Of a stretch of DNA of 64,000 nt, positions 24,608 through 29,703 are shown piece by piece. Positions within the stretch are counted from its first letter, which is position 1. Each line of letters begins with the position of its first letter. This DNA is from Escherichia coli (GTDB taxonomy: Bacteria > Pseudomonadota > Gammaproteobacteria > Enterobacterales > Enterobacteriaceae). Where the stretch lies: NCBI RefSeq assembly GCF_022846255.1, contig NZ_AP025682.1; one strand, given 5' to 3'. The notes beneath the pieces were generated by a model. It had not been told where the DNA came from and ran no database searches. It was given only the letters and a program-made list of their open reading frames with translations. The translations under genes were made by a program, and so were the position numbers.

Positions 24608-25741
24608 ATGAAAAGCAAAGTACTGGCACTCTTAATTCCTGCCCTGCTCGCTGCAGGTGCTGCACATGCAGCCGAAGTTTATAATAAAGACGGCAACAAA
24701 TTAGATCTGTATGGCAAAGTTGATGGCCTGCATTATTTTTCTGATAATTCAGCGAAAGATGGCGACCAGAGCTATGCTCGTCTGGGTTTTAAAGGCGAAA
24801 CCCAAATTAACGATCAACTCACTGGCTACGGTCAATGGGAATACAATATTCAGGCAAACAACACCGAATCTTCAACAAACCAGTCATGGACCCGTCTGGC
24901 ATTTGCCGGACTGAAATTTGCAGATTACGGTTCTTTCGATTACGGACGTAATTATGGCGTAATGTACGACATCGAAGGCTGGACTGATATGCTACCTGAA
25001 TTTGGCGGTGACTCTTATACCAATGCAGACAACTTTATGACTGGTCGTGCCAATGGCGTCGCGACTTATCGTAATGCTGATTTCTTCGGTCTGGTAAATG
25101 GTCTGAACTTCGCGGTGCAGTATCAAGGTAACAACGAAGGTGCCAGTAATGGTCAGGAAGGCACCAACAACGGACGTGATGTTCGCCATGAAAACGGTGA
25201 CGGCTGGGGTCTTTCCACAACATATGATTTAGGCATGGGCTTTAACGCTGGTGCGGCATACACCTCTTCTGACCGCACCAATGACCAGGTTAACCATACT
25301 GCGGCGGGTGGTGATAAAGCAGACGCGTGGACTGCTGGGCTAAAATACGATGCTAACAATATTTACCTGGCAACCATGTATTCAGAAACGCGTAATATGA
25401 CCCCGTTTGGCGACAGCGATTATGCTGTTGCAAACAAAACCCAGAACTTTGAAGTCACTGCACAGTACCAGTTTGATTTTGGTCTGCGTCCGGCAGTCTC
25501 TTTCCTGATGTCTAAAGGCCGTGACCTGCACGCTGCCGGTGGTGCAGACAACCCAGCAGGTGTTGATGATAAAGATCTGGTTAAATACGCCGATGTTGGC
25601 GCGACTTACTATTTCAATAAAAACATGTCCACCTATGTTGACTATAAAATCAACCTGTTGGATGAAGATGACAGTTTCTACGCTGCCAACGGCATCTCTA
25701 CCGATGATATCGTCGCTTTAGGTCTGGTTTATCAGTTCTAA
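24608..25741 (+). CDS. ompN: Outer membrane porin N (OmpC/OmpF family), 377 aa
   Basis: Signal peptide, general-porin motifs and C-terminal aromatic residue (…LGLVYQF); 377 aa. Confidence 0.9.
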
Positions 25742-25800
25742 ATCCCCCTGCCCGCTGTTTTGGCGGGCTTTTTCTGCCTATTCATCCTCCTTTGATCTAA

Positions 25801-26316
<516 letters not shown>

Positions 26317-26323
26317 CACTAAC

Positions 26324-26348
26324 GCCCGCACATTGCTGCGGGCTTTTT
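26324..26348 (+). terminator. uspF intrinsic terminator
   Basis: gcccgca-cattgc-tgcgggc hairpin followed by T5. Confidence 0.6.
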
Positions 26349-26502
26349 GATTCATTTCGCAAATGTGCTGACATTTTCCCCTCTAATCATTACAATTTAA
26401 ATTTATGAATTATGCATTGATAATCGCTATTATAATATCGTTCCCTGTGCATTATTATCAGTTTTTCTGGTATTAAAAGACTGGGCGCTAATAGGAGATG
26501 CA

Positions 26503-27003
26503 ATGAACCACGCAATGTTTCCTGGCATAGTTCTAGCCTGGATTATAGGTATGCCGCTGGGAATTGGTGCATTTATTGTAGGACTGTCTTGTGCAATTGC
26601 AACTGGCTATCTGAAAGATAATAGCATCATAAAGAAAGATACCATTATAGGTATCGTTTTTTCAGGAATTTTTGTCTTGACTATCAACAGGCACAAGTCA
26701 GCGGATTACAGATATCATTATTACATTACAGTTTACTCTGCATGGTATCGCCTACCATTTTTGCCACATTAAAAGCAGTCGGAATTATTCTGTCTATATA
26801 CTATTAACAGCTCCAGGGTCTATTGCTGTCCTCACCACGCGTCGCTTTCATAAGGCATTACTTATCGCCGTAACGATATCAATAACAATATCAGGCGTAT
26901 GGTTATTATATTTTCTCGACAGAGCCCCAGCGCCGACAATCGTCCTCTTATTTGCTGTAGCATTTCTTTTCGCGCTGATAATAATCAATTTTCGGAAACA
27001 ATA
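26503..27003 (+). pseudogene. Frameshifted, 5'-truncated ABC-3 family metal-transporter permease (ZnuB/SitD/MntB-like)
   Basis: Frame 1 (MNHAMFPGIVLAWIIGMPLGIGAF...IIGIVFSGIF) resembles the central part of ZnuB-like permeases; after a stop, two other frames carry the C-terminal part (...LLYFLDRAPAPTIVLLFAVAFLFALII); no N-terminus and no adjacent ATPase or binding-protein genes. Confidence 0.5.
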
Positions 27004-27283
27004 ATCTCAACAGTAGAATAAAGAGGCAAATCAATCATTACATATATAAGATGGTGCTAATATTGTACCGCCTTTAAATTGAATTTTATCCTTTCACCCT
27101 TACACAATTTAAGGAATGCAGATGACTATTTTATCAGCTCCCAGCCTTTTTCCTGGTAATCGAAAACTTGAAAATCATTAACTCTAAGAAATTCTGCCAA
27201 ATCGTTGAAATTACTTTAAATTAGACTCGAACAAATCAACCCCTGATGGGGCTTTTACTTATCAATTTAATCGTGTAGATATC

Positions 27284-27331
27284 GACCTCCATCTGCCCGC
27301 CTCAGATTCGTACCTGGTGGAGGTCTTTTTT
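27284..27331 (+). terminator. Putative intrinsic terminator inside the AT-rich remnant
   Basis: gacctcc ... ggaggtc stem with an inner atctg/cagat stem, followed by T6; no annotated gene upstream. Confidence 0.4.
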
Positions 27332-27392
27332 CGTTGCCTCTTTCCCCCTTTAGTTCAGTATAAAATCATCAAACTAATGCTGTTCACACTAT

Positions 27393-27572
27393 TTACCTCC
27401 AGCATTCTATATAAATAATAGAAATAAAAACCCCAATACATAGTGCATTGGCATGACCAAACATCAATGCCATTATACTCGCCTCTGTTAAATACTCGCT
27501 AGTTAATATGATAGGCACGCATGATATAACAATCCATATGCTAATACATAAATACACCAGTATTTTTCTCAT
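27393..27572 (-). CDS. Hypothetical 59 aa hydrophobic small protein (unverified)
   Basis: ATG-initiated ORF in ~30% GC DNA translating to MRKILVYLCISIWIVISCVPIILTSEYLTEASIMALMFGHANALCIGVFISIIYIECWR with two predicted hydrophobic segments; weak RBS; one codon under the ORF-track cutoff. Confidence 0.2.
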   Translation of the reverse strand: MRKILVYLCISIWIVISCVPIILTSEYLTEASIMALMFGHANALCIGVFISIIYIECWR

Positions 27573-28279
27573 AGTCAGTCCCTGTGATTAACAACAAGGC
27601 ATAGTTAAACATATTTCACATTCAAACGTAAACATTATTAATAAAATTCTGTCAATCAAACTGACATCACGATTCAAGCCCTCTTCAAACTGAAGGTTAG
27701 AGCAGCGTAGAACATTTCAAAACAATACACTAAAAAAATACCCGAACAAAAAACTTAATTCTTTTTTATTGTGAACTTTAGTAATTTTGCCATGCAACTC
27801 TTTATTACATTTAGGCCTATCTTATTTCATGGCAACGCAGATACAGGACCATTTCTTGTGCTATGGATAAGTAATAAGCTAGTTACATCTTTTTAAGAGA
27901 ACCATTTTCACATATCAAGATATCATCACCACCCACAATGAATTAAGTATTTTTCTTATTCTTTAGATTAGATGCGTAATGAATCCCTAACTCCATTCGG
28001 GCGTTATGGCTCTTTCATTTGAAATACATTCATATCCAATGTAATATTTCCATGCGCAAATATAACTACCGACCATACTCATCATTTATTACAGAGAATT
28101 ATTTTATTCACCGAAAAGTTTCACAAAATATCCCCTGATAGAAAACTAAAAAACACTGCATAATATCGCTATTCTGGCACTTGCGAAAAATTATATTCTG
28201 CACCTGTTGTAGCGTTCTATTTCTCCGCCTGGCAACGAATGCACAATGTCCGCCACAGTTTCTGTTCTAATTTCTTCCT

Positions 28280-28588
28280 GTGTTACCGCATCCTGTACGG
28301 GTAGCGCAACACCAGCATGCTAAGCAAGGCTTTCCCATCAGATTTCACTACGACTATTTGGGAGCGAGATGGAATGCAGCAGTAAAACGTGCTGGTATTC
28401 GCCGCCGTAATCCGTACCATACGCGACATACTTTTGCCTGCTGGCTGTTGACGGCAGGAGCGAACCCGGCATTTATAGCCAGCCAGATGGGGCATGAAAC
28501 TGCGCAGATGGTGTATGAAATTTACGGTATGTGGATTGATGACATGAACGACGAACAGGTAGCCATGTTAAATGCGCGGTTATCGTAG
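28280..28588 (+). pseudogene. 3' fragment of a phage-type tyrosine integrase (intR-like remnant)
   Basis: Only the catalytic C-terminus is present (RRRNPYHTRHTFACWLLTAGANPAFIASQMGHETAQMVYEIYGMW with the conserved His/Arg/Tyr residues); the upstream part of the frame is not integrase-like; immediately 5' of ttcA, where intR lies in K-12. Confidence 0.6.
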
Positions 28589-28639
28589 TTGCAAAGTTTG
28601 CCCTCAATATGCCCCACTTAGTACCAGAGAACTGAAATA

Positions 28640-29575
28640 ATGCAAGAAAATCAACAAATTACAAAGAAAGAACAATACAACCTGAACAAATTACAAAAAC
28701 GTCTGCGTCGTAACGTGGGCGAAGCCATTGCTGACTTCAATATGATTGAAGAAGGCGATCGCATCATGGTTTGCCTCTCCGGGGGTAAAGACAGCTATAC
28801 CATGCTGGAGATTCTGCGCAATTTGCAGCAAAGCGCGCCAATCAATTTTTCGCTGGTGGCTGTTAACCTCGATCAAAAGCAACCGGGCTTCCCGGAACAC
28901 GTTCTGCCCGAGTATCTTGAAAAGCTGGGCGTTGAGTACAAGATTGTTGAAGAGAACACTTACGGTATCGTGAAAGAGAAGATTCCGGAGGGCAAAACCA
29001 CTTGCTCACTGTGTTCTCGCCTGCGTCGCGGTATCCTTTATCGTACCGCAACGGAACTAGGGGCGACGAAGATCGCACTGGGTCACCATCGTGACGATAT
29101 CCTGCAAACGCTGTTCTTAAATATGTTCTACGGTGGCAAGATGAAAGGTATGCCTCCGAAACTGATGAGCGATGATGGCAAACATATCGTGATCCGTCCG
29201 CTGGCCTACTGCCGCGAGAAAGATATTCAGCGCTTTGCCGATGCAAAAGCGTTCCCGATTATTCCGTGCAACCTGTGCGGTTCACAGCCTAACCTGCAAC
29301 GTCAGGTGATTGCTGACATGTTGCGTGACTGGGATAAACGTTATCCGGGGCGTATCGAGACGATGTTCAGCGCAATGCAGAATGTGGTGCCGTCGCATCT
29401 GTGCGATACCAACCTGTTCGATTTCAAAGGCATTACCCACGGTTCTGAAGTGGTTAACGGGGGTGATCTGGCGTTTGATCGCGAAGAGATCCCACTACAA
29501 CCAGCGGGCTGGCAGCCTGAAGAAGATGAAAATCAGTTGGATGAGTTACGGCTGAATGTGGTTGAAGTGAAATAA
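28640..29575 (+). CDS. ttcA: tRNA 2-thiocytidine(32) synthetase, 311 aa
   Basis: PP-loop motif [11 protein letters not shown] and the two CxxC clusters; 311 aa. Confidence 0.9.
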
Positions 29576-29580
29576 CCCGG

Positions 29581-29662
29581 ATAGCGCCCGATGCGCAAGC
29601 GTATCGGGCTACTCTTATGGAGGCCGGATAAGACGCGGCCAGCGTCACATCCGGCAATGCCG
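29581..29662. repeat. REP/BIME-type extragenic palindromes between ttcA and dbpA
   Basis: gccggataagacgcggccagcgtcacatccggc and an adjacent imperfect palindrome resemble REP units; located between convergent genes. Confidence 0.55.
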
Positions 29663-29703
29663 AAGAAGATGTTTACTCTTGCACCCTGCAATTCAACATT
29701 TCA

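Follow-up and report, generated by a model that had tools for sequence, protein, structure and literature searches.

The window analysed here is a 64-kb stretch of Escherichia coli DNA in which uspF, ending at 26316, and ttcA, with its start at 28640, have no prophage between them. The space is instead filled by about 2.2 kb of AT-rich foreign DNA, at 26389-28588, which ends in the 3' fragment of an integrase gene and which we refer to as the scar. Open reading frames and base composition both confirm this arrangement, which had been noted in a preliminary description of the locus. That description put the GC content at ~30%; the contrast with the window is real, but the actual figure is 36-37% (37.4% for 26350-28590 and 35.9% for the foreign core at 26389-28357, against 49.2% for the whole window, with 300-nt windows in the locus dropping to 31%). 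The permease, DUF1627 and integrase fragments are already listed as pseudogenes in the RefSeq/PGAP annotation of E2348/69, a strain that matches the window at 99.8% identity. A literature search found no description of the uspF-ttcA scar, and an Rfam scan of 25700-29700 gave nothing within it, the only matches being sub-threshold naRNA4 matches outside. The features of the locus are as follows.

26317..26388, no strand: left part of the native uspF-ttcA spacer, 96.9% identical to K-12 DNA downstream of uspF, up to 26388-26396
26361-26388, no strand: 5' part of an older integrase-like fossil common to all E. coli
26389..27004, plus strand: sitD', pseudogene for an ABC-3 metal permease of the SitD type (Pfam ABC-3, tblastn, PGAP)
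27005..27255, no strand: AT-rich DNA between sitD' and hok', with no match in Rfam, PHROGs, phages or plasmids
27256..27345, minus strand: hok', probably what remains of the 3' half of a type I toxin gene (hok/gef), interrupted by a stop codon in frame (short DNA match)
27393..27572, minus strand: intact 59-codon open reading frame for a predicted two-helix small membrane protein (equal-length homologue, 44% identity)
27573..28100, no strand: AT-rich DNA, the most polymorphic stretch, 6.6% variable sites, no homology detected
28101..28238, minus strand: lygF', 3' end of a DUF977 gene, 72-77% identical over ~115 nt to DUF977/lygF of prophages and of Rac-SA53
28230..28345, minus strand: ydaW', piece from the interior of a DUF1627 gene (Pfam DUF1627, E 5.6e-11 over profile positions 75-104 of 155)
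28358..28588, plus strand: int', the 3'-terminal 77 codons of a tyrosine integrase gene of Rac type (Pfam Phage_integrase, intR identity)
28589..28689, plus strand: attL, running from the phage arm through the ttcA start supplied by the phage (28640) to the 26-bp att core, organised as in K-12 intR-ttcA
28640..29575, plus strand: ttcA open reading frame with a Rac-type (phage-derived) N-terminus, its 5' end identical to that of K-12 ttcA, not ttcC

The right edge of the scar is the best preserved. Both the region of the YHTRH motif and the catalytic region at the C-terminus are retained in the integrase fragment, and the open reading frame over 28280-28588 matches Pfam Phage_integrase (profile 112-165 of 172, E 1.7e-9). 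The segment 28357-28700 is 97.1% identical to the 3' end of K-12 intR, attL and the ttcA 5' end, and 95.9% identical to Rac-SA53, and the distance from the int' stop to the ttcA ATG is 51 nt, the same gap as in K-12. This agrees with the earlier proposal of a catalytic integrase 3' end directly upstream of ttcA, in the position held by intR in K-12. The 26-bp att core, AAGAAAGAACAATACAACCTGAACAA, lies at 28664-28689 and is annotated as attP/attB in Rac-SA53. With an intR-like int', this att core and a phage-type ttcA 5' end, all as in K-12 with Rac, integration at the same site as Rac is well founded. Liu et al. 2015 (PMC4632033) described two N-terminal types of TtcA.

The left edge is of a different kind. 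Beyond a terminator-like hairpin at 26324-26343, where uspF transcripts would end, homology to K-12 stops at 26388-26396, short of spacer B and ttcC. No attR/ttcC copy lies on the uspF side, as judged from the K-12 alignment and from a repeat search of 25700-29700 in which neither the core nor the 5' end of ttcA recurred; for reference, the Rac-type attR arm carries the sequence taagggcaaaaatcac... As no att duplicate survives, the left boundary is a deletion junction and not an att site. The native spacer itself resembles int' (39/51 identical, E 1e-7, a score reached by 0/1000 shuffles), and this older fossil and the new int both contain TAATCCGTACCATAC. Recombination between the two was considered as the origin of the left junction and rejected, since it would have removed the entire scar; the coincidence of TAATCCGTACCATAC is probably microhomology.

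Next to this junction lies sitD', which matches Pfam ABC-3 (PF00950) over profile positions 5-98 and 193-257 of 258, with E-values of 1.5e-22 for the N-terminal frame alone (profile 19-98), 2.5e-7 for 193-257 and 9e-36 for the reconstructed protein. By tblastn it corresponds to residues 26-103, 152-201 and 203-273 of phage-21 SitD at 76%, 72% and 62% identity, so that the similarity to ABC-3 (ZnuB/SitD-like) permeases first noted from the sequence holds. The gene had been called 5'-truncated and frameshifted. The frameshifting is evident, as three frames are needed to follow the homology through frameshifts and stops, and the PGAP label is 'metal ABC transporter permease, frameshifted'. The 5' end, however, is short by only ~6-8 codons, with homology to intact relatives ('EPLQFAFMKYALL') reaching the junction at 26389-26398, and the main defect is an internal deletion rather than a 5' truncation. 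This deletion, of ~48 codons (SitD residues ~104-151), had previously been missed. The permease does lack its partners, as was claimed: the whole 64-kb window has no homologue of SitA, nor any close one of SitB or SitC. No closer intact relatives of sitD' were found in the protein database or in IMG/VR, where the lone match is the same locus, and the genes downstream of phage-21 sitD have no similarity to the window. An ancestral operon at uspF-ttcA was also considered and gained no support: the closest intact SitD-like operon, in Superficieibacter electus, adjoins ybaK/ushA instead.

The middle of the scar is newly resolved here into phage remains, namely fragments of hok, lygF (DUF977) and ydaW (DUF1627) together with one intact 59-codon open reading frame. 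The ydaW' fragment is 86.6% identical in nucleotide sequence to Rac-SA53 ydaW, has its best tblastn matches in ydaW of Rac-family elements and is a pseudogene in PGAP; DUF1627 was also the only match when the longest middle-region frames were searched against PHROGs, Pfam and NCBIfam. The assignments of lygF' and hok' are based on short DNA matches of 66-115 nt. The genes matched by lygF' belong to Pfam DUF977. For hok', identity to hokD/hok of prophages and of Rac-SA53 is 76-80% at 27273-27338, in matches of 66-95 nt, and the Pfam HOK_GEF E-value of 0.051 is below cut-off. Relative to prophage L008, ~272 nt are missing from hok', corresponding to the 5' half and the mok/sok control region. 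A full-length hok' at 27256-27405 was rejected on the basis of these offsets and because 27371-27468 belongs to the small open reading frame. A hairpin lies directly 3' of hok' on the minus strand (27238-27253), and a candidate plus-strand terminator at 27284-27335 proved to be an inverted repeat within the hok coding sequence, read in the reverse direction. Prophage L008 and phages PhiR42_1, 813R8 and 640R1 carry, upstream of hokD, a homologue of the 59-codon frame with equal length and 44% identity. The frame belongs to the nin-region genes of Qin/Rac-like phages. No other intact frame in the scar has a detected homologue, and PGAP makes no call for this one. Around these remains, two stretches of the scar, 27005-27255 and 27573-28100, together ~780 nt, are without any match; the second is presumably decayed nin-region sequence. 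Neither the open reading frames nor the homology searches of 26389-28588 revealed any excision, immunity, replication, lysis or virion gene.

Four segments of the scar align with Rac-SA53 as colinear anchors: 28357-28700 with 1054-711 (int/attL/ttcA), 28230-28340 with 12447-12336 (ydaW), 28125-28238 with 13060-12947 (lygF) and 27273-27338 with 18006-17941 (hok). Their positions are monotonic on Rac-SA53 and their strands are as expected, with ydaW', lygF' and hok' opposite to int'. In phage PhiR42_1 the small open reading frame lies between DUF977 and hokD, as it does in the scar. The preliminary reading of the locus as a degraded integrative element is thus supported and can be made more precise, since the colinearity of ydaW', lygF' and hok' with Rac-SA53 allows the element to be named as a Rac-family lambdoid prophage. 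In common with the Rac-type prophages in ttcA (K-12 Rac, Rac-SA53, CP-933R and Sp10), the scar has the att core in the ttcA 5' end, an integrase 3' end that is 96-97% identical, a phage-supplied TtcA N-terminus and the same arrangement of ydaW, lygF and hok, both in order and in orientation, in the scar as fragments. It differs from them in size (2.2 kb, compared with 23 kb for K-12 Rac and 52 kb for Rac-SA53) and in holding a sitD remnant, which among the Rac-family phages examined is found in neither K-12 Rac nor Rac-SA53. Unlike these prophages, it lacks attR/ttcC, xis and the integrase N-terminus, and therefore cannot excise.

Intact counterparts of sitD' are carried by other lambdoid phages. 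In phage 21 and in more than 20 lambda-like phages, sitABCD lies between the tail fibres and attP, in the same orientation relative to int as sitD' has relative to int' in the scar. The b-region sitABCD of phage 21 and Lambda_ev-type phages thus shares with the scar a SitD-type ABC-3 permease, a location between the tail-fibre end and att, and transcription inward from the att side. In contrast, sitD is the sole survivor in the scar, and is broken; its protein identity of 62-76% to phage and plasmid SitD puts it in a different, more AT-rich lineage, and phage 21 integrates at icd rather than at ttcA. The 'PAI sit' of Shigella and E. coli occupies several chromosomal sites and is prone to rearrangement and deletion (PMC7545054). 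A further parallel is found at ttcA itself. In the complete genome NZ_OZ040973.1 the scar is followed, immediately past the att core, by an intact Rac-family prophage with the order ompT, hydrolase, cdtCBA, tail fibres, hokD, DUF977, DUF1627, intR, ttcA. The IMG/VR contig L017 has the same junction, its alignment to the window stopping exactly at 28689, the start of the new prophage. The att core beside the scar is thus still used, with some scar-bearing genomes carrying a full Rac-type prophage there. This cdt-IV/ompT prophage has the same att site, gene order and attR-proximal cargo slot as the scar; it differs in being intact, ~50 kb long and probably still mobile, in adjoining the scar rather than being it, and in having toxin and protease genes as cargo in place of a metal transporter.

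The scar is present in ~1,044 of 5,426 complete E. coli genomes, at one locus and with 97.5-100% identity, which fits vertical inheritance; it is fixed in these genomes, in contrast to the variable presence of Rac-type prophages. Carriers include CFT073, UTI89, Nissle, ST131 and E2348/69, and to judge from the listed strain names, rather than from phylotyping of all matches, they would be B2-type strains. An empty site consisting of uspF, a 176-bp spacer and native ttcA is found in 2,489 genomes. Scar genomes lack 105 bp of this native spacer and ttcC, and have a phage-type ttcA 5' end. The segment is therefore not core E. coli DNA, K-12 being without it. Among 13 scar-bearing sequences, the AT-rich parts have 4.6% variable sites (3.9% for sitD'), compared with 1.1-1.8% in uspF and ttcA. 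Decay of the element is evident from this raised variability and from the frameshifts, stops and internal deletions.

The explanation that we favour, with a probability of about 80%, is that the scar is a collapsed Rac-family lambdoid prophage, of which sitD was probably cargo. A Rac-family phage would have inserted itself at the att core within the 5' end of ttcA, probably in the common ancestor of the scar-bearing (B2-type) strains, with phage sequence just past int replacing the first codons and upstream region of ttcA, as Rac does in K-12. Serial deletions, the order of which we infer, would then have reduced a prophage of ~50 kb to a colinear 'skeleton' of 2.2 kb. Near ttcA these would have left int' and attL, followed on the opposite strand by the early-right/nin fragments of ydaW, lygF and hok and the small open reading frame. 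The opposite extremity, towards attR, would have kept a broken sitD, once part of a sitABCD-type operon for iron/manganese uptake that was most likely b-region cargo. The leftmost deletion would have taken sitABC, the attR site represented by the ttcC copy, and 105 bp of the native DNA upstream of ttcA, so that excision became impossible and the phage-type TtcA N-terminus was fixed. What the fragments are, how they are ordered and oriented, where the scar occurs and that attR is lost are all shown by the sequences. No intermediate genome with sitABC or attR still attached was found. The earlier suggestion that the element once carried a metal-uptake operon gains support from the position and orientation of sitD' and from the cargo-slot parallel; it is well supported but stays inferential, and it is likewise position, orientation and analogy that point to a single prophage as the source of sitD' and the rest of the scar.

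The fragments could instead derive from two elements, sitD' and the adjacent AT-rich DNA coming from a separate island or a tandem second element beside uspF, the Rac-family part being the right-hand 0.5-1.3 kb from hok' to int', and a later deletion fusing both. The att site has been used repeatedly, tandem arrangements exist today, an older integrase fossil lies even in the native spacer, the inspected Rac-family phages lack sit, and 27005-27255 matches nothing. However, sitD' has exactly the position and orientation of lambdoid b-region cargo and of the cargo in the living prophage at ttcA, the interval from sitD' to hok' contains neither another int fragment nor another att copy, and two elements require more events than one. 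The lower GC of sitD' and the adjacent middle DNA (34-38%, against 51% for int') might also suggest separate sources, but low GC is usual for phage morons. We consider a dual origin improbable. That the scar is ancestral Escherichia DNA lost from other lineages, as its fixation and synteny in all carriers could suggest, is effectively refuted: the empty site has the 105 bp and native ttcA 5' end that scar genomes lack, so that neither state can arise from the other by simple loss, the ttcA start and int' are phage-type, the contents are phage genes, and the GC of 36% stands against 49% for the window.

A separate matter is whether parts of the scar have been kept by selection, int'/attL serving as promoter and 5' end of ttcA and the 59-codon frame as a domesticated phage membrane protein, for example an exclusion or toxin-like factor. 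Against 4.6% in the surrounding pseudogenic DNA, only 1 of 231 sites is variable in int' (10.7 expected, Fisher p 4e-4) and 2 of 180 in the small frame (8.3 expected, p 0.012, a weak value given that several segments were tested). The small frame is intact in 13/13 sequences, a near-identical protein occurs on at least 1000 contigs, and an SD-like AGGGA lies 8 nt ahead of its ATG; its family has a dN/dS of ~0.2, conserved length and codon-position differences in the order third, first, second. As the native DNA upstream of ttcA is gone, ttcA transcription must start from phage-derived sequence. Yet both polymorphisms in the small frame are nonsynonymous, few independent lineages were sampled, chance alone would give about two open reading frames of such length in 1.2 kb at 34% GC (an estimate), the promoter scan is uninformative in AT-rich DNA, and the frame has no PGAP call. 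Partial domestication is as such a tentative proposal, and we regard it as rather doubtful.

The scar is an ordinary genomic fossil that leaves the understanding of prophage decay unchanged, and it provides a clean example of the reduction of a ~50-kb prophage to a colinear 2-kb skeleton. It explains an exception that was noted and left open by Liu et al. 2015 (PMC4632033), because the whole scar-bearing lineage carries a non-excisable attL stub. Use of the ttcA site on at least three occasions is evident, by the source of the old integrase fossil in every E. coli, by the element that left the scar and by present-day cdt/ompT phages. Our analysis also flags a small unannotated phage open reading frame, together with a conserved integrase stub, which could still be relevant to the expression of ttcA. 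If parts of the scar have indeed been domesticated, the fossil in the native spacer would suggest an earlier takeover of the same kind at this site, and successive rounds of phage integration and decay would have remodelled, one layer at a time, the 5' end of a tRNA-modification gene and its regulation.

At this locus, E. coli O127:H6 E2348/69 and the window share 99.8% identity, with the gene order nifJ/ydbK, ompN, uspF (ending at 26316), a 2.2-kb segment (the scar, 26389-28588), ttcA (28640-29575) and dbpA (minus strand). In the ttcA-dbpA intergenic region, the REP-like element naRNA4 gave sub-threshold Rfam matches on both strands (29622-29678; 24.8-26.1 bits, where the gathering score is 59.5). 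In K-12 the 23-kb Rac prophage separates the same two flanks; intR there precedes ttcA by 51 nt, and 176 bp lie between uspF and the ttcC pseudogene (attR). All elements named in the preliminary description are present at the locus, and its proposal of a degraded element integrated at the Rac site is supported and can be sharpened, the scar being the skeleton of a Rac-family lambdoid prophage, still colinear but no longer excisable. The contrast in base composition that it described is real, although its figure of ~30% GC was too low: we measured 37.4% (26350-28590) and 35.9% (26389-28357), with local minima of ~31%, against 49.2% for the whole window.

The tyrosine integrase 3' end described beside ttcA is confirmed as the last 77 codons of such an enzyme (Pfam Phage_integrase profile 112-165 of 172, E 1.7e-9), and the K-12 intR 3' end, attL and ttcA 5' end match 28357-28700 at 97.1% identity. 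When 27005-28235 was compared with E. coli genomes by sensitive blastn, weak matches of two kinds appeared, to DUF977 genes and to hokD, and the complete Rac-family phage Rac-SA53 provided a map for the remnants.

Features of the middle and right parts of the scar
27256-27345: hok', the 3' half of hok with an in-frame stop; 76-80% identity over 66-95 nt, weak Pfam support; 27273-27338 corresponds to Rac-SA53 18006-17941
27393-27572, minus strand: small ORF, intact, unannotated, 59 codons, hydrophobic, two predicted transmembrane helices
28101-28238: lygF', the 3' end of a DUF977 gene; 72-77% identity over ~115 nt; 28125-28238 corresponds to Rac-SA53 13060-12947
28230-28345: ydaW' (DUF1627) fragment; Pfam E 5.6e-11, 86.6% nucleotide identity to Rac-SA53 ydaW, best tblastn matches in Rac-family phages; 28230-28340 corresponds to Rac-SA53 12447-12336
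28357-28700: int, attL and ttcA; corresponds to Rac-SA53 1054-711

The anchors form one monotonic series with strands as expected, and the four colinear anchors therefore imply that 1.4 kb in the window stands for ~18 kb of phage. Everything from antiterminator Q through the lysis, head and tail genes is missing, and ~272 nt containing the 5' half of hok and the mok/sok region is gone. A homologue of the small ORF, of the same length and 44% identical, lies directly upstream of hokD in another prophage (L008 1629-1805). The nin regions of phages PhiR42_1, 813R8 and 640R1 contain it as well, and a homologue also lies at L010 11053-11229. Phage records leave this locus unannotated or mis-annotate it as 'hornerin'.

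On the left, the scar is bounded by a deletion junction. From uspF the window follows K-12 and the empty site up to 26388 (26396 at most); it lacks the 105 bp of native spacer that would come next as well as the ttcC/native ttcA start, and neither the att core nor the ttcA 5' end recurs on the left side. The ttcA start in the window is the phage-supplied version. Rac integration exchanges four N-terminal TtcA residues, and CFT073 was an unexplained exception, with Rac-type TtcA yet no Rac-like prophage in ttcA (Liu et al. 2015, PMC4632033). The scar explains this exception, because attL was kept while attR, xis and most of int were lost.

Of 5,426 complete E. coli genomes, 1,044 have the permease piece and 1,046 the middle piece, each time at a single chromosomal site with 97.5-100% identity. 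Listed carriers include E2348/69, CFT073, UTI89, Nissle, LF82, NC101 and ST131/JJ1886, named strains which we take to be phylogroup B2. A synthetic sequence of the empty site (uspF, 176-bp spacer, native ttcA) matched over its full length in 2,489 genomes, the others having something inserted, as in K-12. K-12 thus lacks the segment, which is not core DNA, and neither of the results that the preliminary description named as refuting it was obtained. The scar appears to be fixed in the scar-bearing lineage. In ~1,021 carriers the scar is contiguous with ttcA, so ~2% of carriers appear re-occupied or rearranged. In some carriers a complete Rac-family prophage has re-integrated at the att core of the scar (NZ_OZ040973.1 2596356-2649500; IMG/VR contig L017 2189-8499). 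The complete genome NZ_OZ040973.1 reads uspF, sitD', ydaW', int', a Rac-type attR arm, ompT, hydrolase and cdtCBA, followed by tail fibres, J, heads, lysis genes, hokD, DUF977, DUF1627, ydaVUTS, racR, recET, xisR, intR and ttcA. L017 shares this junction: it aligns with the window exactly as far as the core end (28689), beyond which it reads 'gtaagggcaaaaatcac…', as at K-12 attR. At its attR-proximal end, the re-integrated prophage has cdt (type IV/I) ABC together with genes for an ompT-like protease and an alpha/beta hydrolase; trkG, queH and two tRNA genes lie elsewhere in it.

The left part of the scar, described previously as a 5'-truncated, frameshifted ABC-3 permease, does match that family (Pfam profile 5-98 and 193-257 of 258; reconstructed protein E 9e-36) and is frameshifted, phage-21 SitD aligning in three frame-shifted pieces (residues 26-103, 152-201 and 203-273 at 76%, 72% and 62% identity). 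However, the 5' loss is only ~6-8 codons, as intact relatives (…EPLQFAFMKYALL…) match right up to the junction, and an internal loss of ~48 codons had been missed. In some assemblies (L004 8001-8600; Logan SRR28698407) the same internally deleted sitD' is a single uninterrupted 199-codon ORF (P0001); the frameshifts therefore vary between lineages, which have the internal deletion in common. As previously described, the permease lacks partners: the whole window contains no SitA homologue and no close homologue of SitB or SitC. We infer that sitD' was cargo of the same Rac-family prophage as int', ydaW', lygF' and hok', since lambdoid phages carry sitABCD (by tblastn, phage 21 and >20 lambda-like phages, between side tail fibre and attP), the phage-21 arrangement is alike, and the cargo slot is occupied today at the ttcA site. 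Opened at attP, the phage-21 map reads att, b region, sitA-B-C-D, tail fibres, …, xis, int, att. Its sit and int genes share one strand, as sitD' and int' do in the scar. Against a single-prophage origin, no intermediate was found with sitABC or attR still joined, sit is missing from the Rac-family phages examined, a close intact relative of this sitD lineage was not found, and 27005-27255 and 27573-28100 matched nothing searched. On balance, the b-region cargo of the prophage very probably included a sitABCD-type operon.

Polymorphism was compared among 13 sequences (12 scar-bearing loci and the window), which represent few independent lineages. The AT-rich pseudogenic parts, the reference for Fisher tests, had 71/1,532 variable sites (4.6%), against 1.15% in uspF and 1.8% in ttcA (where 14 of the 17 fall at third codon positions). 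The bulk of the scar thus behaves as dead DNA should, and three segments are quieter: int' (28358-28588; 1/231, p 4e-4), which falls below both ttcA and uspF, ydaW'/lygF' (4/245, p 0.015) and the small ORF (2/180, p 0.012, both changes nonsynonymous). The stub may now carry a putative ttcA promoter, the simplest explanation of its conservation, since the native DNA upstream of ttcA is deleted. The small ORF is intact in every scar-bearing sequence checked, and comparison with its distant homologue (dN/dS ~0.2; differences 3rd>1st>2nd codon position) indicates a real gene family. The ORF may still be under selection in scar-bearing strains, but few independent lineages were sampled, and ORFs of this size are not rare by chance in 34% GC DNA.

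In all E. coli, the native spacer between uspF and ttcA itself contains a 51-bp stretch (L002 27141-27091 in the K-12/empty-site spacer) with 76% identity to int' 28385-28435 (E 1e-7; score reached by 0/1000 shuffles). Its translation, RKCADIFPSNPYHTRHSF, aligns with IntR residues 345-369 around NPYHTRH (13/25 identical, E 8e-6); Pfam did not detect it. Its first 28 nt are window 26361-26388, and the left junction of the scar cuts through it. This similarity suggests that an older element integrated and decayed at the ttcA site before E. coli diversified. The scar is a well-resolved new case of a familiar process, three of its pieces (the permease, DUF1627 and integrase fragments) already bearing RefSeq pseudogene labels. 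Some novelty lies only in the small ORF, the conservation of the integrase stub and the successive layers of use at the site, where, if the older integration is true, the 3' end of int would be what survives repeatedly beside ttcA.
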